The translations under genes were made by a program, and so were the position numbers. Under the pieces are notes generated by a model, which made no database searches, was not told the DNA's origin, and worked only from the letters and a program-made list of their open reading frames with translations. Positions 21,854 to 52,999 of a stretch of DNA of 64,000 nucleotides are shown here, in pieces; the stretch's first letter is position 1; each line of letters opens with the position of its first letter. The DNA is from Candidatus Dojkabacteria bacterium (GTDB lineage Bacteria; Patescibacteriota; Dojkabacteria; J137), in assembly GCA_025999215.1 (NCBI GenBank), contig AP024679.1, forward strand, positions 36,007-100,006, written 5' to 3'.

Positions 21854-24140
21854 CTAGTTTGGTAAATTTCTTGTAAAAATTTTTCTACTCTTCCCTACCA
21901 CAGTTATGTAAGGTTCTGAATTAAACTCTATCAAATCTATTTCACCTGGAGTTTCGCCATCAAGAGTTAGAAAATACCTCTCTTGCCCTTCTGTTATATA
22001 GCCTAAAAATATACTTCCATTTGTACCTCTTGCAGAAACTAAAATTTTATCATTCAACTTTATAAAATCTGTTTCACCAACAACAAAAGAATTTGGTAAA
22101 TACTCCCAATTTGACAAATTGTTTTCTGATGTTCCAAATCTAAAATAAATTTTTCCGCTCCATCCTTTAACTACTTGAAACAATTTTGAATTAAAAACAC
22201 CAATATTGCTTGAACCAGGAACACTACCACCAGTGTGGTACCAGTTTGTAGCTGAAATTTCATCATAACTTCTGACCCAAATTCTACCATCCCAACCTTT
22301 AACTCTCTGATACAGCTTCCCACTATAAACCGTACCATTCCTACTGTTTGTGATCATCCGGCCCTGATCCTCCCCAATTTTCCGGAACTGAACTCCAACT
22401 CGACTTCCATCAAACGCATCTTGTAATGATTTCGCCATTACTTTTTAATGTATGAGATATAAAGTTTTGAATCATGTACTTCCATAGTGAAATCTCAGCT
22501 TGCCGAAACATCGCCTATGTGCTCCCAATTGCGCTCCAATGTACTACCGTCATAACTTCTCACCCATACTCTTCCGTCCCAACCTGGCACAGCAGAGTAC
22601 AACAATTTTCCGTCAAAAGTTTGTAGGGATACGATCAAACTTTGATGATCCTCCCGTGTGTTGCCACTGCGCTCCAACGTACTGAACCATCATAAGCTTC
22701 TCACCCATATTCTCCCGTCCCAACCATGTACTGCTTGATACAACTTGTTATCATAAACTCTTCACTCACAGACCTTGTTATTTCTAGGTGTGCTTCCTCC
22801 ATTCTCTCCCCAAGGGTTCCAGGTACATTAGATAAACTAAATTCAGCATTTATCAACCCATATCCAAATTCTTGATCCCAACCAGGAGTTCCTAAATCGA
22901 TAACTGCAGTTGAAATTACACGTTCTATAGTTTTATTAGAAATGCTGGAATTTTTGGATTTCATTAACGCTGCTAGCGCACTCACTTGCGGAGCAGCGAA
23001 GCTAGTACCAGCGCCACTAATGGGGTTATCTTGTTGTGTAAAATTTTGAAACAAATCCCCAGAGGATTCATCTGAACAAGTATTAGTCAAAAAACATGAA
23101 AATGTTTGAGATACGACCTTAGATGTTGAAAATTGTCCTACTGGTGCTACTACATCAAGTTTTTGACCAAAATTTGAATATTGAGCCCTTGTATCGTTCG
23201 GGTTGATTGCTCCTACAGCTATCACATAATCCATACCTGCAGGAAAATATTGATTTATATCTGAATTATTATTTCCCGCCGAAGCTACAACCACCACTCC
23301 ATTTTGATAAGCATAAGAGAGAGCATTTTGAAGATTTTGATCATAACCTTTACCGCTCAAACTCATATTGATTACATCTGCACCATTATCGACAGCATAT
23401 ATTATTGCATCCGTTAAGAATCAGCCGTATTTGTAACGCCTCTTAAGTCGTTGTCTGGATTGCTACATGTGGGATCATTGTTTCCTTGAGAATCATAGCA
23501 AAAAGATGTGTCGTTTGGGATAAAAAGGTTTTATTGGCATTATTCTGACATTGTGTGCGATTCCTACTAATTTGTCTGGCGCATCCTCGCCTGCTTTTCC
23601 TGCTATTATTGTCGCTACAAAAGTTCCATGCCCATCATCATCATTTGCGTGATTTATCTTTTCTAAGTTCTTGAGTATTGCATGGATATGCTGTACTTTG
23701 TCTCGAATATCGCATATGTATTTTTGAAAAGCATCATAAGGTGAAACAAAATTCATAGTGTGCAAGTTCATTCTGGACTTTGAAAATATCTCCTGTCATA
23801 TCCCTCGTTGATAAACTCGCATTTGGTGCTGATCTAACGGCACCTCAATATTGAGGCCTAGAAAATTTTTGTAGCTGATAGTTTCCTCCTGCGTCATAGT
23901 CGTAGTTTTCATAAGCAACTCCAGTATCAATTACAGCAACAATTACATTTGGATCACCTCCACCATGAAGAATCTACGCTTCACATCCTCCCAATAATTT
24001 CCAAGCTTCTGGAATTTTTATTTTTTCCAAATACCAATGAGTGATAGTGGAATAATCAGATGGTAAAGCTCTGAATGCATCGTATTATCCCAAGTTTCTA
24101 ATTTACTAAATTATATTGGGTTGTATTTTGCATATTTTCA
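21854..24140 (-). pseudogene. degraded subtilisin-like (S8) serine protease with C-terminal lectin-like beta-propeller repeats
   Basis: Pieces in several frames read: N-terminal PEAWKLLGG...VIVAVIDTGVAYENYDYDAGGNY (Asp site); HGTFVATIIAGKA (His site); DAIIYAVDNGADVINMSLSGKG...VVVASAGNNNSD...GTSFAAPQVSALAALM (Ser site). The C-terminal repeats are GKLYQRVKGWDGRIWVRSYD, SKLFQVVKGWSGKIYFRFG and GKLLYSAVPGWDGRVWVRSYDGS. There are in-frame TAG/TGA stops plus multiple frameshifts. Confidence 0.6.
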
Positions 24141-24438
24141 TTAATTAATAAAATGTCTTTCAATAATTTTTTATGCTAAGGTTTTATTAACCAAGATCTA
24201 CCTATAAAAATTTTTAAACTCTTTTACACTTTTAACATAATGTAAATCCTTGATATATAGTCTAAGATGTTCTTCTGATCTATTGTAGATCTTTCTTATT
24301 AAGATTTCAGCATAACTCACCAACGAGTTCACAACTGTTTTCTCCAACTAATGACTTATCGACATAATTTATTGCTTTTTCAATTTTTTGATTTGTATTC
24401 TTTAATTTTTGCACTTGATACCAAAAGCCAGGTTCACC

Positions 24439-25365
24439 TCAAAATTGAATAAAGATTTTGGCCAGGGCAGAGAGTTGCATCTTCTGTTTTTGTGCCCTAC
24501 AACATTTTCTTGCCATTCTCAATTCAACTTCCCAATAATCACTTAATCCTGGCAAGGAGTAGCCTGTAAGGAAGCAAGGGACTTTGATGAAGGGTTTTCC
24601 TGCTCAAAATCCCCAATCAAAGCTATACCTAAAGTTGCATAATTTGGTGGAGAATGAGCTCCAGTTACACCCAAACTACCAGCACGACCTTCATAAATAT
24701 TTCCTTCTTTATCGATTAAAAAGTTGTATCCAATATCTTGCCAAAGTTCATGCGGTTCATCACAATCTTGGTTAGATGGATCATAATACCCCAGAATTAT
24801 TTACACATCTAATTTTATGATATTCATAAATAGCCCTAACTGCACTAGATAAATCATCAGTTGTGTTTTGAAAAACAGTATGATGAATTACAAAATAATT
24901 TATATGTGGAGCAATATATGGTTGCCAAAGAGAATTAGTTGGTGCCCCCCAATCTTCTCGTAATTTTACATCTAATCCTAAATTTCTAAAAAATGATCTT
25001 TTAATATCTGGATCAGGAAAATTATCAGAAGTTAAGTATCTTCTATCTTTAAAATAATGTATTTTCAAGTTATGTCCACTCAAAATTTGAATTTCACTAA
25101 CATCTGAAGAGTATGGAAATAACTCTGAAACAAATGATGAACTGGCATCTTGATTAAATTCATAATCACCATGTAAGTGATCAAATATTTTTTCATTTCC
25201 ATCTTTGTAAATTATTTTAAATTTTACTTTACCCCAATCTATTGCTTCATTAGAAGAAAAACTAAATGCAATGATTTCAGAGTCGTTTGAATGGATACTC
25301 TGTGCAATGACTGTAGAAATTAAAATTGAAAAAAATGAAATAGCAAGAATCAAAAACTTTCTCAT
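24439..25365 (-). CDS. N-acetylmuramoyl-L-alanine amidase (Amidase_2 / PGRP fold) with signal peptide; two frameshifts
   Basis: A signal peptide is followed by an N-terminal domain and then YFVIHHTV...VRAIYEYH. After a shift at about 24780 it reads WQDIGYNFLIDKEGNIYEGRAGS...GAHSPPNYATLGIALIGDF...ATPC. After a further shift at about 24500 (CC versus CCC) it reads PGLSDYWEVELRM. Confidence 0.7.
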
Positions 25366-26512: not shown

Positions 26513-27611
26513 TTATAATTCTTTCAGCAACATTCGCCCAAGATATTTCATCAGCTTTCCTTTTCGCTGAGAGCTACATATTTCATTTATGTTTTCAATT
26601 TTTCGTTCATAAATTTTCCTCATTATTTCCGAGAGATTTTCTACTGACGGTTCTGCCCATCTAGCTCCAACATTTCCCAGATTCTGATTGATAAGCTAAA
26701 TCAACTTCAAAATCAAGTAAAAATGCGCTATTTTCGTCTACAAAGTCTAAAACTCCACCATACCCAGTTGTTATTAGTGGTACTTCACAATAAATTGTTT
26801 CAGCCATTGGCAAACCAAATCCTTCTGCTCGTGATGGATAAACGCAACAATCTGAATTTTTAGTTAAAAATTTCATTTGTCCGGGTGTCAAATCAGTTCT
26901 ATCTATTACCTCGACTTCAGGAGCATTCTCATTTTGCAATTCTTTCAAAAGATTTGGAACCATGTTGTTTGGATTAGGAAAAGTTTTAATTATTAACACA
27001 CAATCATCATTTTTATCAAATGTTTTAAAATACGCTTTCAATAAAACATCTACTCCTTTTCTTGCTCTGCCTGTGCTTGCATGAAAAAATTTAAAGTTTT
27101 TTTTGGTTTTTAGTTCAAATTTCTCTGGTTTAGCATTAATAAAATCATTATCAATTCCTTCAGAGATATTAAATATAGGTACTCTAATACCTGAATCTTT
27201 CATTATGTGATATACAAACTTACTTGTTACAAACATTAAATGCGCATATTCGTTAATTTCATCAACAAGTTTCTTTGGAAAAATACTTTCTTCCCAAGCA
27301 ATGTATGGAATAATTATTTTTGAAGGTATTTCACTTAAACCATATAAGCCATCAGTATCTCTAGGAGTATTATTAAAAATAGCAATGTCACTTTGTTTTC
27401 TTTCTAAAGAAATCAAATTTTTTAATTCCGATTGCTCAATTTCTTTTTTTGTAGGTAAATAATCAATTCTATCTTTTGGACACCAAAGCCAAACATTCAA
27501 ATTTCTGTATTGAGAGCTCAAGGCCAAAGCTAAATTTCGATTTACTTGAGCCAAACTATAATTTGTGAAATACGGACCAACTATCTGTACGGATTTACTT
27601 TGCAAGTTCAT
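26513..27611 (-). CDS. GT4 glycosyltransferase, one frameshift near 26660
   Basis: Carries KGVDVLLKAYFK...CVYPSRAEGFGLPMAETIYCEVPLITTGYGGVLDF. The tail SESG then continues in another frame as ...ARWAEPSVENLSEIMRKIYE. Confidence 0.7.
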
Positions 27612-27612
27612 T

Positions 27613-27969
27613 TTAATTTTTAGTTTTACTCTTTAATTTTTCTAAGTCGCTTTTTAAATTTTCAATTTCTTTTGTTATCTCTTCAATGGCTTTGAATGTC
27701 AGGTTGTTGAACTTTTGTTGCCTCATACTAGGTTTTTCAATAACATTAATTGTTGTAAAAATAATTTTTTCCTGCACAAAAGTTTTTATTTTTCCCATTA
27801 GCCCAAATCTTTTGGGTGGTTTAAAATAGATAGTTTCAAGAATATTTTTTGATGCTTCAAGACCTGGCAAAATAAAATTCTTAAGAAAATTTTCATTACT
27901 TTCTTTTAGTTTTCCTTCTTTTTTTAGTATAGATTTTGCTTTTGATCTAAGCATTTCAGAATCAATCAT
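27613..27969 (-). CDS. hypothetical small protein with C-terminal coiled coil
   Basis: An ORF of 118 aa ending ...EEITKEIENLKSDLEKLKSKTKN. Confidence 0.3.
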   Translation of the reverse strand: MIDSEMLRSKAKSILKKEGKLKESNENFLKNFILPGLEASKNILETIYFKPPKRFGLMGKIKTFVQEKIIFTTINVIEKPSMRQQKFNNLTFKAIEEITKEIENLKSDLEKLKSKTKN

Positions 27970-29035
27970 TGTTTACAAAAGGGATAACATCTACATAATT
28001 CTTGAACTCCAGTTTTTCTTTGACTTGTTTATTTTGAATGTCTATTTCAAACCAATTTGATTCACTATCTTTTGCAAAAGCTACAAAATTAGAGCAGGTA
28101 ATTTTATTTATATCTGATAGCTTCACCAAAGGCTCCACTTTCTTGTTTTCATACAAAACTTTAAATAAGTCGTTATTTTCGTAATTAAAACCTATTGCGT
28201 AATCACTTTGGCTGCACATAATTTCAGATCTTTTCATATTTTCAATTGGATTAATTTCGCTTGAACCTAAAAATAAATATCCTACATTCATATCATCATC
28301 TCTAGTGTAATTAACAAACAGAATATTGTCGTCGCTAGTGAAAAAAACATCTGTAATTGATTTATTTTCAATTTTGTACATTAGCTCTCCACCTATTGTT
28401 GCGAGATAAAAGCTAGAATCACTATCTTTCAACAATATCCTATTTTTCAAATCATTAACTTCCAAAATATTCGCATTAAGTCTAGAGATTTTTAATATTT
28501 CTCCTGAAACTAAATCAAGGCTATGTAACCACATGTTGTTTTGAGGACCTTGAGTAAAATAAATTTGATCATTACTTATCCAGATGTAGCTAGAAACTCC
28601 TTCCTTGGCGTTTTGAGAGTAAAAAGTAAACTGGTTTAAATCTTTTGATTCTAAATCGTAAACATAAATATCATATATATCATTAGTCATACCAACCAAA
28701 GCTAAATTTTTACCATTTGGTGAAAATTTAGCATCTATCCAATTTTTCCTACTTAAACTTGCTGTAAGCATTGTTTCGTTTTCCAATATTTTTACAACAT
28801 CTTGATCGGTTATTTGAGCAATCTTAACTTTTTGTGTATTTAAATTTGTTGGAGTATCCCCATCATTTGAGTACTCATCAAGCGGATTTGATACAGGGTA
28901 TGATGTGATTTTCTCATCTAAATCTTTATTCTCATTTGGCATAGTAGAAAACATGTATATTCCTAAGGAAAATCCCACCAAAAGTGAACTTGAAATAAAT
29001 ATCAAAAAAAGAATAAATTTTATTAAAGACTTCAT
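27962..29035 (-). CDS. signal-anchored beta-propeller protein (TolB/PD40-like repeats)
   Basis: N-terminal TM helix. Repeats such as WIDAKFSPNGKNLALVG...IYVYDLESKDLNQFTF and SDQIYFTQGPQNNMWLHSLDLVSGE. Confidence 0.5.
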   Translation of the reverse strand: MKSLIKFILFLIFISSSLLVGFSLGIYMFSTMPNENKDLDEKITSYPVSNPLDEYSNDGDTPTNLNTQKVKIAQITDQDVVKILENETMLTASLSRKNWIDAKFSPNGKNLALVGMTNDIYDIYVYDLESKDLNQFTFYSQNAKEGVSSYIWISNDQIYFTQGPQNNMWLHSLDLVSGEILKISRLNANILEVNDLKNRILLKDSDSSFYLATIGGELMYKIENKSITDVFFTSDDNILFVNYTRDDDMNVGYLFLGSSEINPIENMKRSEIMCSQSDYAIGFNYENNDLFKVLYENKKVEPLVKLSDINKITCSNFVAFAKDSESNWFEIDIQNKQVKEKLEFKNYVDVIPFVNND

Positions 29036-29076
29036 ATCCTTATTTTAAATTATTTTTAATTAAAATAAAACTTTAA

Positions 29077-29613
29077 TTAAATAATTTTAGTAAACAACTT
29101 AATTGACAAAATTAAACTTTCCCAAAATGAAAAATTTTCTACATTTGTTTCGCTAAAACTTTTTCCATACACCACCATTCCTTCTTGAGAGCAATCATAA
29201 GCTAGGTAAGGTAGCAAATATTCAAAAGTAACTAATCCTATTTGAGTATTTTTTTTCAATTGACTGCAAAAATCTTCTATTTTTGTTACAACGTCAGCGC
29301 TAACCTCTTCATTAAAACTGAAAGTTTTGTATTCAACACCTTGACTATCTAATTCTTTTTTTAATTCATTAAATTCTAAAACTGAAACATTATTTCCTTT
29401 TTTGTCAGATACATTGATATATACTTCATCAAGCTCACGCCAATCTTTAATTTCTAATGGCCTTTTGTAGCTGACGATAAAATAGCTTAAAAAGGGTATA
29501 CAACATATAAAAACTAAAGAACCCACAAAAATGCTCCATAAAACCTCCTTTGATAATATTTTTCGTAATTTTCTTTTTATCTTATAATTTTTATTTTTTC
29601 TTGAATACTTCAT
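29077..29613 (-). CDS. membrane-anchored hypothetical protein
   Basis: Lys-rich N-terminus, then one TM helix (VLWSIFVGSLVFICCIPFLSYFIV). Confidence 0.3.
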   Translation of the reverse strand: MKYSRKNKNYKIKRKLRKILSKEVLWSIFVGSLVFICCIPFLSYFIVSYKRPLEIKDWRELDEVYINVSDKKGNNVSVLEFNELKKELDSQGVEYKTFSFNEEVSADVVTKIEDFCSQLKKNTQIGLVTFEYLLPYLAYDCSQEGMVVYGKSFSETNVENFSFWESLILSIKLFTKII

Positions 29614-30265
29614 ATTTATTTAAGTTATTATTTTTTCCATCAGCACAAAATTCATCAATTAACTTAAGTTTACAGTTATTTAAAATCTCTCTCAATTCTT
29701 CCTCTGTAGTGTTATGAACAAACCTTACTGCACCTTTTTGTCCAAACGACAATAAGTAATTATTTTCTCCTAAATCCTCAATTATTTTTTCTTTTAATTT
29801 TGGATCTTTTAAAAATTGCCATATTGTCAATATAAATATTCCTTCTTTTTCTAAAAGATTTTCAACTTTTTTAAAAAAAGTTATTCTGCTAATTTTAGAC
29901 TCAAAATGATGAAATAACCCAAAAGCAACAACAAAATCAAATGAAAAACCTTGCAATACACTCCAATTGTCTTCTTCAAGATCAAAACAAAAAAATGAAA
30001 AACTGGAAGTGGTTTCATAATTTCGCGATTTTGCTAAATTTAGCATTGCTTCTGAATTATCTACACCTACGTATGATGAAAATTTGATATTGTTATCAAT
30101 CAAAAATTTCAAAAACCTTCCATTACCACAACCCAAATCTAAAACTCTTAAATTATTTTTTTTCAAATATTTTAAAATTTCGAACCAACCCCTCCATGGG
30201 CTTAGTCTCGTCTGAGAAAATTCATGCGCATATTCGGAGTAAAGATTTGTTGATTTTCTCATTTT
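29591..30265 (-). CDS. Trm9/ALKBH8-like class I SAM methyltransferase (tRNA wobble cm5U to mcm5U methyltransferase-like)
   Basis: Carries YSEYAHEFSQTRLSPWRGWFEIL...VLDLGCGNGRFL, matching the Trm9 N-terminal signature (HFS.TR..PW..V..FL...DVGCGNGKYL). The start was moved to the internal Met (MRKSTNLY) to remove the 5' overlap with elp3. Confidence 0.65.
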   Translation of the reverse strand, partial: KMRKSTNLYSEYAHEFSQTRLSPWRGWFEILKYLKKNNLRVLDLGCGNGRFLKFLIDNNIKFSSYVGVDNSEAMLNLAKSRNYETTSSFSFFCFDLEEDNWSVLQGFSFDFVVAFGLFHHFESKISRITFFKKVENLLEKEGIFILTIWQFLKDPKLKEKIIEDLGENNYLLSFGQKGAVRFVHNTTEEELREILNNCKLKLIDEFCADGKNNNLNKYEVFKKK

Positions 30266-30309
30266 TTCAATAATAACACAAAAATTAAAGTCAATGATAT
30301 AATCTAAAA

Positions 30310-32103
30310 ATGTCAAAATACAAATTTGATCCCAAAATTTATCAACAAGAATTAATAGAAATCGCAAAAGAATTGGCGCTATCAGAATCTTTGAGTAAAA
30401 AATATATAGACAGAGTAATAAAAAAACACCCTCAAGATGGAAATAAAGTCTTCAGCAGGGATAAACTAATTTTAGGATTAAAGTGGTTGTGGAAAAATGG
30501 TTTAGTTGATTTTGATCAAGCAAAATTAAAACACATAATTAAATGTTTAAAACTCAAACCTACCAGAAGCATATCAGGAGTTACAACTGTTACAGTTTTA
30601 ACAAAACCCTTTGCATGCCCAGGAAAATGTATTTTCTGCCCAAATGACGTGAGAATGCCCAAAAGCTACATTGCAACAGAGCCCGGAGCACAAAGAGCTC
30701 TTATGAATAGATTTAGTCCCTATCTTCAAGTTTGGAATAGATTGAAAGCTCTACAAAACATTGGGCACCCTACCGATAAAATTGAATTGTTAGTTTTAGG
30801 TGGAACGTGGTCTTATTACCCTGAAAAATACAAAGTATGGTTTATTGAAGAATGTTTTAGAGCAATGAATGATTTTGGCAAAAATTTAAAAAATACAAGT
30901 GATAAAATAATCGAAATAAAAGAATATTTACAAAATGATTACAATGATGAACTTAGAAAAGAAACAGGCGATAAACCATACAATCAATTAATTCAAACTC
31001 CTCAATTTAAAAATCATTTTAAAAAATTCCTATCACCTGAGCCTAATTTAGAATTAGATATTTTGTGGAAGAAATTAGAAGAAGAGCAAGTTAAAAATTC
31101 AAAAGGCAAGGTCCGGTGTGTAGGGTTAGTGCTTGAAACAAGACCTGACTGTATCACACCTCAAGAAACGCTAAGACTTAGAAAATTAGGGGCAACTAAA
31201 ATTCAACTTGGAATACAGACTTTGGATGATAAAATAAGCGAATTAAACAAAAGAGGTGAAACTAAAAAAGACACAATAAATGCTTTCAAATTATTAAGAT
31301 CAGCTGGATTTAAAATACATGCACATATAATGCCAAATTTGTATGGCTCCAATCCAAAAACCGATTTGAAAGTTTACAAAGAACTATTTAGCTCTCCTAA
31401 TTTTCGACCTGATGAAATTAAAATTTATCCAGCATCAATCATCAAGCACACAGAACTAGAAAAACTTTACAAAGAAGGAAAGTATAAACCCTACAGCACA
31501 AATGAGCTTGTAGACTTAGTGGCAAAATGTATAGAAGTAACACCTGAATATTGTAGAATCACAAGAGTAATACGAGATATTCCGTCTACCGAGATAACAT
31601 CTGGCAACAAAACTACTAATTTACGAGAAGTGGCGGAAGATAAGTTAAAAAGGGAAGATAGACCAAACAGAAATATCAGAGCACGAGAAATTAAAAATCA
31701 AAAAATTAATCTGAAAGAACTTAAACTTGATCAAATAAAATACGAAACAATTAATAGCTTGGAATATTTTTTGCAATTTATAACAAACGATAGAAAAATT
31801 GCAGGTTTTTTAAGATTATCGGTTCCTAAACAATTTAAAAACCCTATTACCAGTGAGCTTGATGATTGCGCAATTATCAGGGAAATTCATGTATACGGAC
31901 CAAGTTTGGGGATCAACACCAAATCTTTTGGAGAAGCTCAACATCTTGGTTTGGGAACGAAATTAATCAAAAGAGCTGAAGAAATAGCAAAAAAGTATAA
32001 TTTTCCCAAACTTGCTGTAATTTCAAGTATTGGAACAAGAGAATATTACAAAAAGCGTGGTTTTGAATTGATCAAGCTTTACCAGATTAAAGAATTGTTC
32101 TAA
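30310..32103 (+). CDS. elp3: Elp3 homologue: radical-SAM plus GNAT tRNA U34 carboxymethyl-modifying enzyme
   Basis: Radical SAM cluster FACPGKCIFCPN; Elp3-specific PKSYIATEPGAQRAL and LVLGGTWSYYPEKYKVWFIEECF; C-terminal GNAT REIHVYGPSLGI...HLGLGTKLIKRAEEIAKK. Confidence 0.85.
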   Translation: MSKYKFDPKIYQQELIEIAKELALSESLSKKYIDRVIKKHPQDGNKVFSRDKLILGLKWLWKNGLVDFDQAKLKHIIKCLKLKPTRSISGVTTVTVLTKPFACPGKCIFCPNDVRMPKSYIATEPGAQRALMNRFSPYLQVWNRLKALQNIGHPTDKIELLVLGGTWSYYPEKYKVWFIEECFRAMNDFGKNLKNTSDKIIEIKEYLQNDYNDELRKETGDKPYNQLIQTPQFKNHFKKFLSPEPNLELDILWKKLEEEQVKNSKGKVRCVGLVLETRPDCITPQETLRLRKLGATKIQLGIQTLDDKISELNKRGETKKDTINAFKLLRSAGFKIHAHIMPNLYGSNPKTDLKVYKELFSSPNFRPDEIKIYPASIIKHTELEKLYKEGKYKPYSTNELVDLVAKCIEVTPEYCRITRVIRDIPSTEITSGNKTTNLREVAEDKLKREDRPNRNIRAREIKNQKINLKELKLDQIKYETINSLEYFLQFITNDRKIAGFLRLSVPKQFKNPITSELDDCAIIREIHVYGPSLGINTKSFGEAQHLGLGTKLIKRAEEIAKKYNFPKLAVISSIGTREYYKKRGFELIKLYQIKELF

Positions 32104-32111
32104 AATTAATT

Positions 32112-33602
32112 ATGAAACCAGAACAAGCTCCTAAACAAGCTCCTAACAATCCATCTGAAAATCCGCAAGAAACAAATTTAATTCTGGGAATTTTTGCAGA
32201 AATAGAAAAACTGCTTACAGATTTAGAAGATAACTCTGATTTGGGAAATTGGTTAAAGAATTTTAAGCAAGTTGATGAAGATAACTCCTCTGATAACAGT
32301 GAGCAACAAAAAATCCCTAATGTTCCAATTGGAAAAATTAAGGGTGATATAACATATTGCTTAGACCTCCTATTTACAGAAGGTGTTAGCGAAGATAGAG
32401 CTGTAAAAATATTAATTATTCTTACTCTTTTAAATACTAGAAATGGTAATATTCCCGAAAAATTAAAGATAAACTTGATATCTTTTTTTATACAATACTT
32501 AGAAGATAAAAGAGATGAAGATTTCGTTAAAAAGGTGATTAAACAATACTTCTACATATCACTAAACACAAATCTTGACATTTTAAATTTCATAGTTACT
32601 TCTTTGCTTAAAAATTCACACTTACACTTATTCAAACTTACAATAGAAGGTTTATTTAATGATGTCTTGAATAGTCGAAATATTAGTGACAATCCGTCAA
32701 AACAAATATTAATTAATATCCTTAATGCTCTAGAATCTATAAATCAAGATAAAAAAAATATAAACGAAACAAAAGCTGAGCTTTCATTGTTACTATTGTT
32801 AATTGAAAGTTTCAATAAAAATAACAAAGAATCTCAAAATTTCAATGGAAATATTGAATCGCACTTGAACAAGTTTATTGAAAATAAAAAAAATTTTAAA
32901 GATGAAAGACTATGTATTAATCCTCCCTGTAACATAGTACAAAATTTTTCCATAAAAAAAGAAGGAAACGTCATTAAAATTACATTTAATATTGGAAGCA
33001 AACCTGTATTTTTGATATTAAAAAATTTTGAACTATCGCAGGTCTCTATCTCTAATACTAGTATTTTAGAAATCTTGGAGAAAATTATTTTAGTCGTAAC
33101 ATTTTTTAATTTACACAATCAAAATAAGTCAGTCTATTTAGATTTAGAAAATTTAAATATTAAACATGTAATATCAAAATTAGTAGAATTAATTTTGAAG
33201 GATTTTGTTACATTTCTTAACCACTCATCAATTCATTTTCGTAGTATGAATGAAAGTATAGATCTTACTGTAACAGAAAGAATTGAAAATAATCAAATTC
33301 ATACTGCATTTGAAAATCCAAGTCAACTGGTTCAACTAATGATATGTGCACAAATTTTTAGAAGTTCTGAAATACCCTCCATTAACGTTCATGGAGAAAA
33401 AGTAACACTCACAATTAAAATAGATTCAAATTTTTTAGAAGAATTTGAAACAATATTTGGATACTACAAGGCATCAAAAGTTAATGGTAAGACTGCGTAT
33501 GTGACACAAAATATTGATAATAAAAAAGTTATAATAACCATAGTATTGCTCAAGGAGGCAGATAACTTTAATATTATTACAACTTATCCAACAATTACTT
33601 GA
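32112..33602 (+). CDS. hypothetical cytoplasmic protein (496 aa) with a Pro/Gln/Asn-rich low-complexity N-terminus
   Basis: Long ORF with no signal peptide and no recognisable motif. Confidence 0.35.
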   Translation: MKPEQAPKQAPNNPSENPQETNLILGIFAEIEKLLTDLEDNSDLGNWLKNFKQVDEDNSSDNSEQQKIPNVPIGKIKGDITYCLDLLFTEGVSEDRAVKILIILTLLNTRNGNIPEKLKINLISFFIQYLEDKRDEDFVKKVIKQYFYISLNTNLDILNFIVTSLLKNSHLHLFKLTIEGLFNDVLNSRNISDNPSKQILINILNALESINQDKKNINETKAELSLLLLLIESFNKNNKESQNFNGNIESHLNKFIENKKNFKDERLCINPPCNIVQNFSIKKEGNVIKITFNIGSKPVFLILKNFELSQVSISNTSILEILEKIILVVTFFNLHNQNKSVYLDLENLNIKHVISKLVELILKDFVTFLNHSSIHFRSMNESIDLTVTERIENNQIHTAFENPSQLVQLMICAQIFRSSEIPSINVHGEKVTLTIKIDSNFLEEFETIFGYYKASKVNGKTAYVTQNIDNKKVIITIVLLKEADNFNIITTYPTIT

Positions 33603-33638
33603 TTTGGTTTAACAAAATGTTAAAATGTATATAGTCTT

Positions 33639-34088
33639 ATGCCAGAAATTATGCCAAATTATAACCAACAAGAAATACCCGATAGGTTAAAGGAGGGAAT
33701 ACGGTGGTTAATTAACAAACTTAGCCCTATCTATAATCAGGATGTCAAAGAAGGACCCTTGCCTTTAATGAAAATCTTAATAAATGAAGAAAAACGTCAA
33801 CAAGATTTGGACTACATTAAAAGGATTGCTAAATATTGGCAAAATTACAGGAATTATATACAAAATAACTCAAAAGAGATTATAATAAATCAACTAAAGG
33901 AACTTTTAACAATTACAGATGGGTTCTATGGAATAGAAGAAATTGAAGGATTAACTCAACCTCCTTTTAACTTTGATGGTAGTAATCCACCATATAATAC
34001 TGAACAACTTGCTGAAATGCTTGTTCAGATATTAGATATTTTACCAAAATTATTGAACCAACTTGATCAAACCCCAGATGAATTCTAA
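33639..34088 (+). CDS. hypothetical protein (149 aa)
   Basis: ORF only. Confidence 0.3.
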   Translation: MPEIMPNYNQQEIPDRLKEGIRWLINKLSPIYNQDVKEGPLPLMKILINEEKRQQDLDYIKRIAKYWQNYRNYIQNNSKEIIINQLKELLTITDGFYGIEEIEGLTQPPFNFDGSNPPYNTEQLAEMLVQILDILPKLLNQLDQTPDEF

Positions 34089-43482: not shown

Positions 43483-44955
43483 TTATGCTTCTAATTGATT
43501 AACATCTCTTGAATGCGTTTGTTGGTTTGGAACATCCTTTCTTACGTTCGTCATATCAACAAAAAATTTAAAAATCTCGAAAATAATGTGTTGCAAAGCT
43601 TGTAACAAAGCTTCTTTAGATTCAAATTTATTTTCCTTAATTCGGTTTATCGCATCTTGGTGAATATTAATGATCATAGAAACATATTCGCTCCTTTGAT
43701 TATCGTCTAATCTTATGTAGTGACCTGTATTTTCTACATAGCCGTTTATTTGAGATAAATCAGGGATTTGAAGAGCGCCAGCATCCCTAAAAATATCATT
43801 TACAATTTCTAAAACTGCCACTACGACATCTTTGCTAGGTAATAAGAGAGAAACATCTTCTTGCCACTTTTCTTGAATATATGGTTGTTCTGGTGGGACT
43901 CCTCTCAGCGTAAGTCCATGTGTTTGGGCTTGGTTTATGAAATCTTGCAGTGGATTTATCATGAAGCCTCCAAGATCTTCCATCCAAAAAACATCAACAT
44001 CAAGCATTGCATTTAATGCCATGAAAATTCCTGGGTATATGCCTGAATAATAAGTTTCAGCAGTTGGTCGACATAAAACAGTTTCGTTACTCCTTATTGC
44101 TTCAATTAGTGCGTTCTGATCAACTGTCTCAAACTCATTATTTCCATCTGAATATGTGTTCATTTTCCGGAAAACTCGACCTTGACTTACTACATAATAT
44201 TGTGTTGTTGTACCTTCCCCATAAATCACAAATCCAAATGGTTTATTTGGTAGCGAAACTTGGTCATAATTCTCAGTTGGAGGAGAACTTAGTCCTTCTA
44301 ATATATTTAAGACTGCATCCTTGAAAAAAGCGTCTAAATCTAGTTCTGGTACTTTACAAACAGGAATCATTTCTACGTACATATTCATAAGTTTGGTATA
44401 AAAATCTTTTAAGTCCAAAATTTCATCAGAGTTATTATATTCGGTATCTTTACCCAACAAAGTTTTTGCCATATTATTAGCATTTTTTGGAACAACAGAA
44501 TGATTATGCAATGGGTGACCTGCTTTCCCTCCATTTTCATGAAGACTTTTATGCTGGGATATCCTAGGCCTTACACTTTTATCTTGGATGTAAGGTCTGT
44601 CTGATGGCATATTGAATTTTAGAACTTGTGGAATTATAGTTCTATACTTCTCTATATTTTGTGACGAAAATATATCATTAAGATCTAGAACTATATATTT
44701 TGCGCCAACTAATGAAGCTGCAATTGCGCCTGCTATATTTCTCACATTTGGAACATTTAAGTGCTGGACTGATATTACTACTGGATCTGTTTCACCATTT
44801 AATATTGTTTGAATATATTTTCCAAAATGTGACCGTACTAAATCACAATACTCTCTAATACCAAACATATTCTCCATAAATTCATTAATAATCTTAATAC
44901 GCTCGCCTCTATTTTCATAATTTGGCTCTGATTCATTAAAGTAATTTAGCTCCAT
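43483..44955 (-). CDS. hypothetical protein (490 aa), no recognisable domain; composition is less AT-biased than its neighbours
   Basis: Long intact ORF. It is preceded by the promoter / structured leader / terminator described below. Confidence 0.4.
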   Translation of the reverse strand: MELNYFNESEPNYENRGERIKIINEFMENMFGIREYCDLVRSHFGKYIQTILNGETDPVVISVQHLNVPNVRNIAGAIAASLVGAKYIVLDLNDIFSSQNIEKYRTIIPQVLKFNMPSDRPYIQDKSVRPRISQHKSLHENGGKAGHPLHNHSVVPKNANNMAKTLLGKDTEYNNSDEILDLKDFYTKLMNMYVEMIPVCKVPELDLDAFFKDAVLNILEGLSSPPTENYDQVSLPNKPFGFVIYGEGTTTQYYVVSQGRVFRKMNTYSDGNNEFETVDQNALIEAIRSNETVLCRPTAETYYSGIYPGIFMALNAMLDVDVFWMEDLGGFMINPLQDFINQAQTHGLTLRGVPPEQPYIQEKWQEDVSLLLPSKDVVVAVLEIVNDIFRDAGALQIPDLSQINGYVENTGHYIRLDDNQRSEYVSMIINIHQDAINRIKENKFESKEALLQALQHIIFEIFKFFVDMTNVRKDVPNQQTHSRDVNQLEA

Positions 44956-44985
44956 CTATTCAAACATAAAAGCTATAACAAAAAC

Positions 44986-45009
44986 TAAAAAATCTCCCTT
45001 TCGGGAGAT
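44986..45009 (-). terminator. rho-independent terminator (stem UCUCCC-GAAA-GGGAGA followed by UUUUUU) located 30 nt upstream of the 43483..44955 start codon
   Basis: Perfect 7-bp inverted repeat ATCTCCC/GGGAGAT at 44992-45009 with an A6-7 run at 44986-44992 on the plus strand, which is a U-run on the minus strand. Confidence 0.5.
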
Positions 45010-45091
45010 TAATATTTATTTACCATCTCCCCTACCTCTAGATATTCACTAGAGATAAGATGATATTTGAGCAGATGGTAAAGTTTTTCAT
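44986..45091 (-). ncRNA. candidate small structured RNA or cis-regulatory leader (~106 nt), containing a 17-codon mini-ORF (MKNFTICSNIILSLVNI)
   Basis: Minus-strand sigma70-like promoter TTGACA-17nt-TAGAAT (plus coordinates 45097-45125). Predicted transcript GUGUCAUGAAAAACU[UUACCAUCU]GCUCAAAUAUCAUCUUAU[CUCUAG]UGAAUAU[CUAGAG]GUAGGGG[AGAUGGUAA]AUAAAUAUUAA[UCUCCC]GAAA[GGGAGA]UUUUUU. It has a 9-bp outer stem, a nested 6-bp hairpin and a terminator hairpin followed by a U-run. Confidence 0.35.
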
Positions 45092-45096
45092 GACAC

Positions 45097-45125
45097 ATTC
45101 TAGCATAGTCAGCGTAGTTTGTCAA
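45097..45125 (-). promoter_or_regulatory. sigma70-like promoter (-35 TTGACA, 17-nt spacer, -10 TAGAAT) reading leftward
   Basis: Plus strand 45120-45125 TGTCAA (reverse complement TTGACA); 45097-45102 ATTCTA (reverse complement TAGAAT); the spacer 45103-45119 is 17 nt. Confidence 0.4.
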
Positions 45126-45189
45126 CACATTTTGCTCTAAAACTCAAAACATTATTAACAAATTATGCTTTTTAATTTATACTTTTATA

Positions 45190-48171
45190 ATGATCTCAGA
45201 AAGTTTAAGGAAAATAGTCAAAAAATCTAACATCCTTGCAATTTTATTTGCATTAGTTGCAATTTTTTCAGTAAGCAATATTTCGAGTCAAATAGAAGAA
45301 GGGAGAATTATACCTTTCGGGATACTCAACAATGTTTTTGCTGAATTTTCTCGGTCTGCACCAAACAGCACGAAACTTGCTAAAAATTTATCAACATCAT
45401 CAAATATCCAAGACCAATCGGATAGATGCCAAATTGTTGACCCAAATAGACCTGATATTTTAACTGCTTGGGAATACGAGGGAGTCAGTGGCGCTCAAAT
45501 TAAAGGAGATAATATTGCTGGAGCTAACCCTGGAGTTTCTTATGGAGCAGGCTTTGATGCGCCCAAAGATGAGACCGTTAGAGATTACGCAAGTAGTCTC
45601 GGAATGAGTTATAATCTTGCTATATTTAGTGCACCAAATGAAGTTGGCAATGCGATTGCATTTGTGAATGCCAACATTGATGCTGGATTCATACCCATCG
45701 TAAGGCTTTGCGTTGCAGTTGCTGATTCATGCCAATTTAATAGCCCAAACGATGTAATTGGTTTTTATACAGCGCTTCACGATGGAGCTAACGGAGAATT
45801 TATAGCTATGGTTGGACCAAATGAGCCCGGAACTGGTGAAGATGGTTACATTGAAATGAATGGATTTGGCGGAATCAATTCTTATGCTCAAATAATAAAT
45901 TTTGTAAACGAAGCTGCTACAGGACTTCAAAAGTATAGAAGCATTAATGGAGGAAAAATGTATTTATCCCCTGGAGCTTTTAACCTAACCAATCCAATAA
46001 ACCGTGATGTATATGAGTATCTCTACAATCCATCAAACCCAAAGCTCAAAATTAATTTGTTTGATTATCTTATGGGAAATGTCTATGCTCAAGGCGAGCC
46101 TGCTGTTAAAAATGTGCCCTACCCTTACGCAACTTACAGAGATGGAGAAAACCATGATGGAAATGGACTTGGTAATTTTGCGGAAGAAAATAATATTCCT
46201 GTGATTTTGACAGAATTTGGCATTTTCAAAGAAGCAGGTGATAGTAAAACAGTTCTTTTAAATGAAGCTATAGAATCTTTTAAGTTATTTTGCGCAGATG
46301 AAACAATTGCTGGAGTGTTGTTTTTTCAATCATTTTTAAATGACGATGGAACAGTTTTAATAAGTGATATAGAGCAAAGAAAGGAATTTCATGGGTTAAC
46401 CAAACAAGAACATAGCTTAATAATTGGAGACTGTACGAAATCTAGTCCATTTAAAGATTGGGCATGGGCTAACTGTAATTTTGACTCTTGTATCTATAAA
46501 GATTATGAGTATGATCCAAAATCAACTGCATCAGCTTGTGGTGTTGAAGATAAACCTTTAACGGGTGATGGTAAACCTGCACTCAAAGTCGTATGCTCTA
46601 ATGGAATTTGTAGTACCAGAGCTATTAAGACTATCGATATTGGAATGCCAATTAGACATTTTGGAGGAAATAGTTTAAATGGTTCACCAACTCACCAGTA
46701 CCCATCAATTTGTAGTGAACTTTCAACTCAATTTGCAAATAAAAATTATGACACCATAAACCAATTTGCAGGTGTAATTAACATGGGTGGAACCCAATAC
46801 CCAATGCCATGGCTTGGATCGGCTATAAATTGCGCGAGCCAATTATTGCTAGCTACTCAAGAATTTGCATACCTTACACCAGATAAATATACATTTAACC
46901 CACATCCAGGAAGTAAAATTGAAGAAATCGTTAACGAAATAAACTCAGACGAAATTTACGGCATGCCATGGGAAACATACAACGGCGCTATACCAGGCGA
47001 ACCACTTTATGATGCAGCGCCAACCATGAATGAAACGCGCTCAATTATCGATGAAGCAGCAATATGCTTGATGCGCGATGAAGCAACTGATCTGGACGAT
47101 AGATTATTTTGCCTTGATAAACGAAAAAATCCCAACCAAGTATTTGCTTTCAACGATTATGATCCGTACAAAAGCGATTTAGAGTGGGAAAAGTCTACCT
47201 GCAACACAAATATGGTCTATAGAAAAGACCCCAAAAATATGATCTATGGACCTGAAATTCAAGTGTCAGACATTGAGACAGTAGAAACTATTTCTGAATC
47301 AGAACTATGTTATGAATTTGCACGCAGAAACTCAGAAGGAGTAACCTCAAAAATACTAGCAGGTGTTGATTATCCTAGGTATTTCCCTGATGGTGACACA
47401 TCTAACGCTACTCCAAATTGTCAAATAGATCGTACAAAATTTGTAAATGGAGTTTCATGTGCTGCTCTTAGTTGTTCAAGCTCTGATATTTTAAAAGGAA
47501 AATGTAAGGCTGACTTAAGGTTTAAAGATTGTTTTAACTATGTAAATTCTTCACAATCAAGTGAACATCAAATTTATTTGAAAGCAGATAGCAATGTTTT
47601 CGCGCAAGTTCCACAAGTTGAAATAGAAGGAATTTACGATGCTTTGTACTGGATGTACCTACGCACTCAAAATTCTTTCAAAAATAAAAAATTCAAAATA
47701 GTATTTAGAGAAAACATCGGAATGAATGTTGAGGTAAACTCTAAAATTAGGGATGCCAACAGAGGAAAAGATGATGCGCTTAATCCGAAATTTCCAGCTG
47801 GCGAGTCCGAAAATCTGTACGCTCAGGAATTAAACTCTTGTGAAGTGCCAGACAACATGTACTCGTATAACAACCTGCTAGCAAAAAATAGCCCAATTAA
47901 AACTCAATATCAATACTTTGATTGGCTTGGATATTTGGACATTTTGCAAGAAATACAGAAAGTTTATTTTGGTAACACTCATACTTGCCTGATATCAACT
48001 TTGAGACAAAATCTAGACTCTTTGGTACAGAGGGCAGCTCCAAATAGCGATAGAGAGTTTATTTTGGTGAGTGGTTCCGCGTTAAAAACAATGAGTTATC
48101 CCCTATTCACTTGTGATGAACTCAACTTAAGAATAGCCAAAGATCCATATTTTACGCTTATATGGAAATGA
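45190..48171 (+). CDS. large secreted protein: N-terminal TIM-barrel glycoside hydrolase of clan GH-A (GH5-like), plus a ~600-aa Cys-rich C-terminal region of unknown function
   Basis: Signal/TM ILAILFALVAIFSV. The MVGPNEPG (NEP acid/base motif) and ILTEFGIF (nucleophile motif) sit about 135 aa apart. There are many conserved Cys residues in the C-terminal half. Confidence 0.5.
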   Translation: MISESLRKIVKKSNILAILFALVAIFSVSNISSQIEEGRIIPFGILNNVFAEFSRSAPNSTKLAKNLSTSSNIQDQSDRCQIVDPNRPDILTAWEYEGVSGAQIKGDNIAGANPGVSYGAGFDAPKDETVRDYASSLGMSYNLAIFSAPNEVGNAIAFVNANIDAGFIPIVRLCVAVADSCQFNSPNDVIGFYTALHDGANGEFIAMVGPNEPGTGEDGYIEMNGFGGINSYAQIINFVNEAATGLQKYRSINGGKMYLSPGAFNLTNPINRDVYEYLYNPSNPKLKINLFDYLMGNVYAQGEPAVKNVPYPYATYRDGENHDGNGLGNFAEENNIPVILTEFGIFKEAGDSKTVLLNEAIESFKLFCADETIAGVLFFQSFLNDDGTVLISDIEQRKEFHGLTKQEHSLIIGDCTKSSPFKDWAWANCNFDSCIYKDYEYDPKSTASACGVEDKPLTGDGKPALKVVCSNGICSTRAIKTIDIGMPIRHFGGNSLNGSPTHQYPSICSELSTQFANKNYDTINQFAGVINMGGTQYPMPWLGSAINCASQLLLATQEFAYLTPDKYTFNPHPGSKIEEIVNEINSDEIYGMPWETYNGAIPGEPLYDAAPTMNETRSIIDEAAICLMRDEATDLDDRLFCLDKRKNPNQVFAFNDYDPYKSDLEWEKSTCNTNMVYRKDPKNMIYGPEIQVSDIETVETISESELCYEFARRNSEGVTSKILAGVDYPRYFPDGDTSNATPNCQIDRTKFVNGVSCAALSCSSSDILKGKCKADLRFKDCFNYVNSSQSSEHQIYLKADSNVFAQVPQVEIEGIYDALYWMYLRTQNSFKNKKFKIVFRENIGMNVEVNSKIRDANRGKDDALNPKFPAGESENLYAQELNSCEVPDNMYSYNNLLAKNSPIKTQYQYFDWLGYLDILQEIQKVYFGNTHTCLISTLRQNLDSLVQRAAPNSDREFILVSGSALKTMSYPLFTCDELNLRIAKDPYFTLIWK

Positions 48172-51505: not shown

Positions 51506-52999
51506 TTGACTGTTCGAACAAGATTAGCACCAAGCCCAACAGGTTCTATGCACATTGGTGGAGTCCGAACTGCGCTATACTGCTATGCACTGGCAAAAAA
51601 GAATGAAGGGCAATATATTTTGAGAATTGAAGATACGGATACAAAAAGGTTCGTTGAGGGTTCAATTGAGGAGATTTTAAAAGTTCATGAAATTTATGGA
51701 ATCAAACCTGATGAGGGTCCAACATACGGCGGCAATTATGGCCCATACATTCAGACACAAAGGAAAGAAATTTATCAAAAGTATGCGCACGAATTAGTCG
51801 AAAAAGGGCATGCGTACTATTGCTTTTTGTTTGGTGACGAACTTGAAAACCTTCAGAATGAATTTCTCAAAAAAGGTACAGGCTTTAGATCTCCGTACAG
51901 GGACATGCCAATTGAGGAAGCTAAGCAAAAAATAGATTCTGGCGAAAAATATGTTATTAGAATGAAAACACCAAATAACGAAAAAATTGAATACACTGAC
52001 GGAGTGCAAGGCAAAGTTGTTTTTGATAGTAACATGGTTTCAGACCAAATTATTCTAAAAAGTAATGGATTGCCCACTTATCACTTAGCTGTTGTGGTCG
52101 ATGATCACTTGATGGAAATTACTCATGTTTTTAGAGGTGTTGAATGGCTTACCAGTACACCCAAGCAAATATTATTGTATAGATTTTTAGGTTGGGAAAT
52201 GCCTCCTTTTTATCATTTATCAACAATTCTTGATCCTGATACTGGCAAAAAATTATCAAAAAGATCAGGCACAGTTTCTGCAATGGAATTTATACGTGAA
52301 GGATACATTCCTGAAGCTGTAAATAATTTTTTGATGCTTTTGGGTTGGTCCCCGCCTATTGAGAGAGCTCACGGCGAAAAAGAACGAGAAATTTTTACCC
52401 TAGATGAATTTATTGAATTGTTCGATCCAAAAGATTTAAACAAAAGTAATCCTGTATTCAATCGTCAAAAACTTCTTTGGTTTAACAAAGAATATATTAA
52501 AAATATGAATACTCTTGATCTAGCAAACAGAGTTGTTGATTGGGTAAAAAACTATTTACCTGATAGAAATCTACTTAGCCACCTTGAAACAGACCCAAAC
52601 CTTGAAGATAAAGTTAAACTCGTCAAAGATCGATGCTATTTAATCAAAGATTTGGTCGAATCAATTAGCTTTTTTTATCACAGGCCTGAAAACATTGTTT
52701 GGGAAATAAAGCAACTTAAAAACGTACCCCGCAATCAAATTCCTCAAATACTAGAAGAATTAAAAAACTTCTTAACCGACTTTTCTGAAAATTCTAGTGA
52801 TTGGTTACACGAAAAATGGGAAAAAGGAATTAGAAATATTGCAGATAAATTTACAATGAAACACGGCGATGCTTTCATGATTTTGAGGTTAAGTGTTACT
52901 GGAAAACCTGTATCTCCTCCACTTTTTGAAGCACTGCAACTTCTTGGAAAACAAGAAATTATTAGTAGAATTGAAAGTGCTTTAAAATCTTTTAAATAG
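51506..52999 (+). CDS. gltX: glutamyl-tRNA synthetase
   Basis: Carries VRTRLAPSPTGSMHIGGVRTALY (HIGH region) and KLSKRSG (KMSKS). The start is inferred as TTG at 51506. Confidence 0.9.
   Translation: MTVRTRLAPSPTGSMHIGGVRTALYCYALAKKNEGQYILRIEDTDTKRFVEGSIEEILKVHEIYGIKPDEGPTYGGNYGPYIQTQRKEIYQKYAHELVEKGHAYYCFLFGDELENLQNEFLKKGTGFRSPYRDMPIEEAKQKIDSGEKYVIRMKTPNNEKIEYTDGVQGKVVFDSNMVSDQIILKSNGLPTYHLAVVVDDHLMEITHVFRGVEWLTSTPKQILLYRFLGWEMPPFYHLSTILDPDTGKKLSKRSGTVSAMEFIREGYIPEAVNNFLMLLGWSPPIERAHGEKEREIFTLDEFIELFDPKDLNKSNPVFNRQKLLWFNKEYIKNMNTLDLANRVVDWVKNYLPDRNLLSHLETDPNLEDKVKLVKDRCYLIKDLVESISFFYHRPENIVWEIKQLKNVPRNQIPQILEELKNFLTDFSENSSDWLHEKWEKGIRNIADKFTMKHGDAFMILRLSVTGKPVSPPLFEALQLLGKQEIISRIESALKSFK

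Follow-up and report, generated by a model that had tools for sequence, protein, structure and literature searches.

A gene for the radical S-adenosylmethionine (SAM) enzyme Elp3 and a gene for a Trm9-like methyltransferase lie back to back in a 64,000-nucleotide stretch of DNA from Candidatus Dojkabacteria (GenBank assembly GCA_025999215.1, contig AP024679.1, positions 36,007 to 100,006 of the forward strand), the whole of which is called the window below. Dojkabacteria (WS6) is a candidate bacterial phylum, and the Elp3/Trm9 route of wobble-uridine modification is established in eukaryotes. The locus probably encodes a two-gene module acting on the wobble uridine (U34) of tRNA, in which Elp3 would make 5-carboxymethyluridine (cm5U34) and the Trm9-like enzyme would esterify it to 5-methoxycarbonylmethyluridine (mcm5U34). 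The family identities of both proteins, the conservation of their catalytic residues and the linkage of their genes are shown by sequence comparison.

An earlier note on this DNA had credited the plus-strand gene with the full Elp3 architecture, and each part of it is present. The product matches the NCBIfam family TIGR01211 (ELP3) with 493.4 bits against a cutoff of 350, over model positions 44–521 of 522. The Pfam search proposed in that note finds Radical_SAM_C (82.6 bits), Radical_SAM (52.2 bits) and Acetyltransf_1 (24.8 bits, cutoff 20.7). The best solved relatives are the Elp3 proteins of Methanocaldococcus infernus (343 bits, E about 1e-101) and Dehalococcoides mccartyi (323 bits), and the yeast, human and mouse proteins score 279–285 bits. 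The radical-SAM motif is in place, the quoted motif PKSYIATEPGAQRAL lies at amino acid (aa) 117, and the C-terminal GNAT region includes QHLGLG and REYY.

The residues needed for binding or hydrolysis of acetyl-CoA in M. infernus Elp3 have been determined by Lin et al. (PMC6367351). By alignment, the counterparts of M. infernus K150, K266, Q461 (E386 in D. mccartyi), H463 and Y517 in the window protein are K157, K335, E525, H527 and Y579. Of these, K157 and K335 belong to the radical-SAM domain and complete the acetyl-CoA pocket. The pocket, on which the Elp3 claim had been made to depend, is intact, with all the tested residues present. Conservation was counted in an alignment of 59 bacterial Elp3 sequences from related loci. 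The three cluster cysteines (C103, C107 and C110) and K157, K335, H527 and Y579 are invariant in all 59, and the position of E525 is Glu in 57. The M. infernus enzyme makes cm5U in vitro (PMC7663514).

The 84-aa N-terminus of the window Elp3 is basic (19 Lys or Arg, 10 Asp or Glu) and is conserved among the bacterial relatives. No alignment is obtained between it and the N-terminus of the archaeal protein, and the TIGR01211 match begins at aa 69. A basic N-terminal extension is the feature needed for tight tRNA binding in archaeal and eukaryotic Elp3. The radical-SAM domain contains a 65-aa insertion that is absent from solved Elp3 structures, and the linker cysteine triad that binds zinc, described in PMC6367351, is lost. 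Within the 59-sequence alignment the CCC triad is kept in 47 proteins, the window Elp3 not among them. All 12 proteins with an incomplete triad carry an insert of 30–134 aa; 46 of the 47 with the triad have at most 25 aa at that position, the exception being L009 with 41 aa. The members of this subclade come from the window (and from loci L001, L003, L005, L019, L024, L031, L041–L043, L045 and L049), with Pacebacteria, WWE3, Myxococcota and Thermoanaerobaculia/Multivorans represented; their inserts have a YNxxV-type motif in common and their triads are lost wholly or partly. Eukaryotic Elp3 also lacks the triad, and therefore the triad does not define the Elp3 family as a whole.

The methyltransferase partner

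Pfam finds only generic domains (Methyltransf_31, 25, 12 and 11) in the minus-strand product, and its AlphaFold2 (AF2) model has a Rossmann-type fold with a predicted local distance difference test score (pLDDT) of 93.6. The translation contains HEFSQTRLSPWRGWFEIL and LDLGCGNGRFL, the two strings that had been quoted as the N-terminal signature of Trm9/ALKBH8. Mutagenesis of yeast Trm9 by Létoquart et al. (PMC4678810) found D72, H116, W145 and W168 to be essential and R29, R241, Y243 and N271 to be strongly needed, with a contribution from H115. The R29A mutant loses about 95% of its activity and H116A is inactive, and H115/H116 were proposed to hold the carboxylate of cm5U (PMC4678810). Six of these nine residues (R29, D72, H115, H116, W145 and R241) are identical in the window protein. 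Their equivalents, and their conservation among 118 bacterial members of the family, are given in Table 1. The match of N215 to N271 is only probable, since it follows a 6-residue loop and the alignment to the solved Trm9 ends before it.

Table 1. Yeast Trm9 residues tested by mutagenesis, their equivalents in the window methyltransferase and their state in 118 bacterial family members
Yeast Trm9	Window protein	State in the family
R29	R19	conserved in 112/118
D72	D42	conserved in 118/118
H115	H118	conserved in 118/118
H116	H119	conserved in 118/118
W145	W148	conserved in 118/118; aligns to the Yarrowia W
W168	F173	W in 98/118, F in 19/118
R241	R180	conserved in 117/118
Y243	V182	not conserved: C 41, V 36, A 13, Y 13 of 118
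N271 (probable)	N215	N in 83/118

When the window methyltransferase is compared with all PDB sequences, PH0226 scores 40.9 bits, XrdM/ToxA 34.5 bits and Yarrowia Trm9 (5cm2_Z) 32.5 bits with an E value of 6.6e-7. The matches to PH0226 and XrdM/ToxA are confined to the Rossmann core, whereas that to Trm9 begins at the N-terminal motif, QTRLSPW in the window protein and NTRYKPW in Yarrowia. A profile of 44 family sequences gives MM_2633 59 bits (positions 20–156) and Trm9 53 bits (positions 27–229 of 244). The alignment to Trm9 by hhalign has a probability of 98.9%, the identity with Yarrowia Trm9 is about 21–22%, and fold searches with the methyltransferase did not single out Trm9 as its closest solved structure.

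The connection to Trm9 is also seen through relatives of the window enzyme. For the Elp3-adjacent enzyme of a Saccharibacteria genome (locus L061), Trm9 is the top PDB match, with 74 bits versus 50 for the next, and the window methyltransferase is 33% identical to this enzyme over its full length (E 7e-25). In the reverse direction, Yarrowia Trm9 was searched against about 4,900 open reading frames (ORFs) from 100 loci and the window. It matches only Elp3-linked methyltransferases (79 of 79), and the Saccharibacteria members, at 50–72 bits, are level with the archaeal members from Thermoplasmata. Several close homologues bear the label 'tRNA (uracil-5-)-methyltransferase TRM9' from the Joint Genome Institute (JGI) pipeline. 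The NCBIfam models of ArsM, BioC, UbiG/UbiE, CmoA and others all score far below their cutoffs on the window protein (e.g. 39 against 240), and an identity of the CmoM/CmoA/CmoB type was rejected on these scores.

The proposal of a Trm9-like identity thus stands on the catalytic residues, the link through L061 and the reverse search, but it is not borne out by raw score or by fold, neither of which puts Trm9 first. The concern that other class I families might score better proves right in part: PH0226 and XrdM/ToxA are slightly higher, but over the Rossmann core and not over the full length. The enzyme is best described as a putative divergent member of the Trm9 family, for which the raw score of the window protein alone is no proof.

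Linkage and distribution of the pair

The two genes are divergent, with start codons 47 bp apart. Linkage was scanned by searching the methyltransferase profile against one genome per GTDB species, which yielded 80 loci. Elp3 adjoins the methyltransferase in 65 of them. Six of the 15 unpaired loci have less than 1.1 kb of upstream DNA, giving a rate of 65/74 among loci with at least 2.7 kb upstream, and the physical pairing that the earlier note had singled out is conserved to a high degree. The layout is almost always divergent, with the genes mostly 0–100 bp apart. All-against-all clustering of the neighbouring ORFs in the 80 loci finds no family besides the pair in more than 8 loci. Since the pair is kept across species and has no other conserved neighbour, the adjacency is not due to chance, and the module is strictly one of two genes.

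The hosts of the pair belong to at least five phyla, namely Patescibacteria, Chloroflexota, Acidobacteriota, Myxococcota and Fermentibacteria. The description of bacterial Elp3 as rare understates its distribution. Patescibacteria are represented by Pacebacteria, WWE3, Saccharibacteria, Komeilibacteria, Parcubacteria and Gracilibacteria, Chloroflexota include many Anaerolineae, and the Acidobacteriota hosts are Thermoanaerobaculia. A few pair-carrying metagenome-assembled genomes are labelled Proteobacteria, and these labels are treated with caution. Thermoplasmata members of the methyltransferase family are also found in the scan (L068 and L079). The divergent pair recurs in a second Dojkabacteria genome, with 62% identity in Elp3 and 44% in the methyltransferase.

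A metagenome scan with the window Elp3 gave 19 loci. Twelve of them include 1 kb or more of upstream DNA, and 8 of these 12 carry the methyltransferase. In seven of these eight the genes are adjacent and divergent, and in one the methyltransferase lies 3 kb downstream. In one Elp3 clade (L092, L093 and L094, 47–48% identical to the window protein) the 4 kb to each side are free of any Trm9-like gene, and therefore the pairing is not universal among Elp3 proteins of the bacterial type.

Other arrangements are seen in particular lineages. At the Gracilibacteria locus L021 the two genes are co-directional with a 10-bp gap, in an operon-like manner. In about a dozen loci a single lineage-specific gene separates Elp3 from the methyltransferase. 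For instance, a short-chain dehydrogenase (SDR) gene lies there in Thermoanaerobaculia/Multivorans (L005, L019, L024, L031, L042 and L045), and a gene for a CysH-like reductase of 3′-phosphoadenosine 5′-phosphosulfate (PAPS) with an ECGLH motif in some Anaerolineales (L018, L025, L038, L039 and two others). Both were considered as core parts of the module and rejected, being lineage-specific.

A third conserved partner (Trm112, a thiolase or a Urm1-like protein) was sought in the window and the 80 loci, and none was found. A motif scan of the 64-kb window for a Trm112-like ORF matched only a thioredoxin CPxC, and Trm112 is not conserved near the pair in the 80 loci. Similarly, a scan of the window and the fetched loci for signatures of MnmE, MnmG and MnmA found none of the three, and only two Era-like GTPases matched.

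Predicted product and competing explanations

From the two family identities, the residues and the linkage we infer the chemistry and its products, the tRNA substrates, activity in the absence of Trm112, and how the module relates to the MnmE/MnmG pathway. Elp3, judged by its homology, would bind tRNAs bearing U34 and would cleave SAM at the [4Fe-4S] cluster to form a 5′-deoxyadenosyl radical. The acetyl group of GNAT-bound acetyl-CoA would be taken and attached to C5 of U34, giving cm5U34. The Arg and the His-His dyad of the methyltransferase may then hold the carboxylate of cm5U, as has been proposed for yeast Trm9, while the methyl group of SAM would be moved to the carboxylate to produce the methyl ester mcm5U34. 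The 47-bp upstream region that the genes share probably lets both be co-expressed.

A wider proposal concerns a broad set of bacteria, whose wobble uridines of the mcm5U type would come from a Trm112-free Elp3/Trm9 pathway that either replaces MnmE/MnmG or works beside it. The set consists of most of the Patescibacteria lineages sampled, Anaerolineae and other Chloroflexota, Thermoanaerobaculia and Myxococcota. We put this forward tentatively, as plausible and somewhat short of probable.

Several observations weigh against mcm5U34 formation by the pair. The Trm9 enzymes of eukaryotes and of Haloferax volcanii need Trm112, which was detected neither in the window nor among the conserved neighbours; in H. 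volcanii, Trm9 works with Trm112 and makes mcm5U (PMC6144793). PH0226 and XrdM/ToxA outscore Trm9 for the window protein alone, where Trm9 is third, and the family profile prefers MM_2633, with Trm9 second. The tyrosine Y243 of Trm9 is replaced by V182. On the Elp3 side, the zinc triad is missing and the insert is present. The only bacterial Elp3 that has been assayed, that of D. mccartyi, shows weak tRNA-induced activity (PMC6367351). Finally, no report of mcm5U in bacteria was found in the searched literature.

Some of these points bear on the alternative that retains most weight, namely that Elp3 makes cm5U34 and the methyltransferase turns it into something other than mcm5U. The product would be a new xcm5U derivative, formed if the enzyme methylates the side chain or the base at a different atom, or if it acts on 5-carbamoylmethyluridine (ncm5U) or on a hydroxylated derivative. 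Such an outcome is unlikely, yet it has evidence to draw upon. The replacement of Y243 (by Cys, Val or Ala in most members) is shared widely, and the family has Gln at the position of W23 of the window protein in 32 of 118 members and Gly at that of N215 in 22 of 118, which points to subfamilies. The lack of a Trm112 in the window or as a conserved neighbour is in the same direction, and in H. volcanii cm5U was quickly turned into other, unidentified species (PMC6144793). Against this, the residues that are proposed to bind the carboxylate (R29, H115/H116 and R241 in yeast numbering) and W145 are near-invariant, and carboxyl O-methylation is the reaction that fits them best.

The other three explanations are far less probable. 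The first sees in the methyltransferase a generic class I enzyme, of the small-molecule or UbiE/BioC-like kind, that is unrelated to Trm9 and is a neighbour of Elp3 by accident. It is hard to reconcile with the NCBIfam scores far below cutoff, with competing PDB matches that cover the Rossmann core only, in contrast to the Trm9 alignment, which extends from the N-terminal motif as far as the C-terminal region, with adjacency to Elp3 in 65 of 74 species across phyla and no other conserved neighbour, and with Trm9 catalytic residues near-invariant in 118 members.

It is also very improbable that the pair acts on a substrate other than U34 of tRNA, for example another RNA or a protein. For a long time Elp3 was put forward as a protein acetyltransferase, and the insert together with the lost zinc site could alter substrate binding. 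A tRNA scan and an Rfam scan of the 64-kb window gave zero tRNA genes and zero Rfam matches, and there is therefore no linked tRNA substrate and no linked RNA element. On the other hand, Elp3 retains every catalytic residue of the tRNA reaction, and the partner is homologous to a tRNA U34 methyltransferase.

That the pair is a recent horizontal acquisition or a non-functional relic can be given hardly any credit: several other genes of the window look fragmented, but both ORFs are intact with all catalytic residues present, the GC content of the pair (0.31) matches the surroundings, and the identities to the pair of the second Dojkabacteria genome form a pattern of vertical inheritance under selection. 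The preferred explanation is still a two-gene module for mcm5U34.

Setting of the pair and comparison with known systems

The features of the pair are collected in Table 2. The end of the methyltransferase gene at 29591, as given in the earlier note, is correct. A mechanical ORF start would be the TTG at 30367, which would overlap Elp3. Translation most likely begins at the ATG at 30262, and the product then has 223 aa. It matches with 100% identity the public gene call P0001, a protein of Candidatus Dojkabacteria bacterium KatS3mg085 encoded on an 862-kb contig. An exact look-up of the window Elp3 sequence returned no record. A TATAAT hexamer lies in the 47-bp spacer, 8 bp upstream of the Elp3 ATG, and is a candidate promoter element; a promoter scan of the spacer found no full sigma-70 consensus and no terminators.

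Table 2. Positions of the Elp3/methyltransferase pair and its features in the window
Feature	Position	Strand	Basis
Putative Trm9-family class I SAM-dependent methyltransferase, 223 aa	29591..30262	-	Pfam, PDB sequence matches, hhalign, AF2 model
HH dyad H118, H119 (yeast Trm9 H115/H116; aligns to the Yarrowia HH)	29906..29911	-	alignment
SAM-binding motif I LDLGCGNGR (D42 = yeast Trm9 D72)	30116..30142	-	alignment
Trm9-type N-terminal substrate motif FSQTRLSPW (R19 = yeast Trm9 R29)	30194..30220	-	aligned to Yarrowia Trm9 NTRYKPW
AT-rich intergenic region, 47 bp, between the divergent start codons	30263..30309	.	sequence
Elp3 gene, 597 aa: basic N-terminal region of ~84 aa, radical-SAM, Radical_SAM_C, C-terminal GNAT/KAT	30310..32103	+	TIGR01211, Pfam, solved relatives
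Radical-SAM [4Fe-4S] motif CPGKCIFC, C103-x3-C107-x2-C110	30616..30639	+	translation; aligned with the cluster cysteines of M. infernus
65-aa insertion in the radical-SAM domain (aa 189-253), conserved YNxxV-type motif	30874..31068	+	PDB alignment splits at aa 188/254
Linker zinc-binding cysteine triad position, here NRNIRA (N453, N455, A458), site lost	31666..31683	+	alignment to M. infernus CRCIRC
GNAT/KAT acetyl-CoA domain: E525, H527, QHLGLG (aa 544-549), Y579/Y580	31753..32103	+	mapped to M. infernus

The genes directly downstream of each member of the pair (32112–34088 on the plus strand, 27613–29613 on the minus strand) have no Pfam or NCBIfam match. They comprise ORFs of 496 and 149 aa after Elp3 and of 178, 357 and 118 aa after the methyltransferase, the first of the latter sharing 23 bp with the methyltransferase gene at its stop. 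In another Dojkabacteria genome (L082), but not in other phyla, the methyltransferase is followed by genes of comparable size.

The window as a whole is AT-rich (GC about 0.27–0.35), and its gene content is typical of a small genome, with an envelope-glycan cluster, peptidases, ClpB/ClpC, a glutamyl-tRNA synthetase and a two-component system. The glycan cluster is large (217–21807 and 26661–27611) and encodes RmlB/RmlA-like proteins, many GT2/GT4 glycosyltransferases, an FkbM methyltransferase, a PMT_2 protein and a Wzm/Wzt ABC transporter. Two of its genes look truncated, one for a UDP-glucose dehydrogenase without its N domain (2138–3058) and one for an epimerase fragment (3950–4390). A subtilase (Peptidase_S8) gene on the minus strand is split into separate ORFs (22474–25365). 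Its piece at 23493–23771 has the His motif DDDGHGTF, and the piece at 22701–23366 has the Ser motif GTSFAAP and matches only profile positions 125–288. An amidase-like gene adjoining it is also in pieces, and the GC content at the split subtilase region is 0.385 compared with about 0.29 nearby. The split genes are pseudogenes or assembly frameshifts.

Farther along the window lie two long ORFs of 490 aa (minus strand) and 993 aa (plus strand) at 43483–48171 that have no Pfam match at E ≤ 1e-4. Three more genes are unlinked to the pair in other genomes: the glutamyl-tRNA synthetase (51506–52999), an ORF whose match to the AbiEii toxin profile is confined to the profile's first ~43 positions (59880–60521), and a stand-alone tRNA_bind protein of the CsaA/Trbp111 kind (60569–61021).

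The presence of a conserved Elp3/Trm9-like pair across several bacterial phyla contradicts the published picture. One review confines bacterial Elp3 to Dehalococcoides and finds no direct evidence for bacterial xcm5U derivatives (PMC7663514). A 2017 review from the laboratory that solved the Trm9-Trm112 structure states that homologues of the Trm112-dependent methyltransferases are not detectable in bacterial genomes, and that the distribution of Trm9 is limited even in archaea (PMC5372719). A 2026 paper mentions 'numerous bacteria' that have Elp3 alone. No description of a bacterial Elp3/Trm9 pair was found in the searchable full-text literature, which is no proof of its absence, and automated labels in the style of KEGG Orthology (KO) already name some of the methyltransferases TRM9. 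The distribution is much wider than the accessible literature implies.

The pair leads to the prediction of mcm5U34 in bacterial tRNA. If this is true, bacteria would have a second route to a C5-modified wobble uridine, and the xcm5U chemistry regarded as archaeal and eukaryotic would be a trait of all three domains. Simple two-protein systems would then be at hand for Elp3/Trm9 chemistry without Elongator or Trm112, and a structural class of Elp3 not recognised before, which carries the insert and lacks the zinc site, would have been defined. The pair would also inform how bacteria of the candidate phyla radiation (CPR), with their minimal genomes, keep decoding accurate, and would bear on the origin of the eukaryotic Elongator pathway.

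The locus represents the known Elp3/Trm9 system in a bacterial form and not a new kind of system. Its variant features are the compact divergent layout, no Trm112 in sight, an Elp3 from the subclade that carries an insert and lacks the zinc site, and a Trm9 relative without Y243. The archaeal system, HVO_2888/HVO_1032 with Trm112 in H. volcanii, likewise has a stand-alone Elp3 without Elp1, 2, 4, 5 or 6 and a Trm9-family methyltransferase that needs cm5U, as is predicted here, and the Elp3 and Trm9 genes are clustered in Sulfolobus solfataricus (PMC6144793) as they are in the window. It differs in that the present host is a bacterium with no Trm112 gene found nearby. Furthermore, unlike the archaeal enzymes, the window Elp3 has no zinc triad and has the 65-aa insert, and the window methyltransferase lacks the equivalent of Y243. 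The eukaryotic system, Elongator (Elp1-6) with Trm9-Trm112 or ALKBH8-TRMT112, uses the same two catalytic families for the same predicted chemistry; its Elp3 is also without the zinc triad, and the Trm9 active-site residues are shared. In contrast to it, the window shows no accessory Elongator subunits and no Trm112, and the two genes adjoin each other in divergent orientation.

The one characterised bacterial Elp3, DmcElp3 of D. mccartyi (PDB 5L7J/5L7L/6IA6), is also stand-alone, and its E386 is matched by E525 of the window protein, whereas the archaeal enzyme has Gln at this position. The N-terminal extension is almost absent from DmcElp3, its tRNA binding is weak and its zinc triad is intact (PMC6367351), whereas the window Elp3 has the 84-aa basic N-terminus and the insert, and no triad. 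No mention of a partner methyltransferase for DmcElp3 was found in the accessible literature. The bacterial MnmE/MnmG pathway to xnm5U34 (with MnmC or MnmM/MnmL) has the same target, C5 of U34, and the same presumed role in decoding, but works with unrelated enzymes and chemistry (GTPase and flavin adenine dinucleotide (FAD), glycine or ammonium, methylene-tetrahydrofolate (methylene-THF)). A parallel in chemistry to the step predicted for the methyltransferase is offered by the CmoA/CmoB/CmoM system of Gram-negative bacteria, in which uridine 5-oxyacetic acid (cmo5U) is converted to its methyl ester (mcmo5U), and in which CmoM likewise esterifies the side-chain carboxylate of U34.

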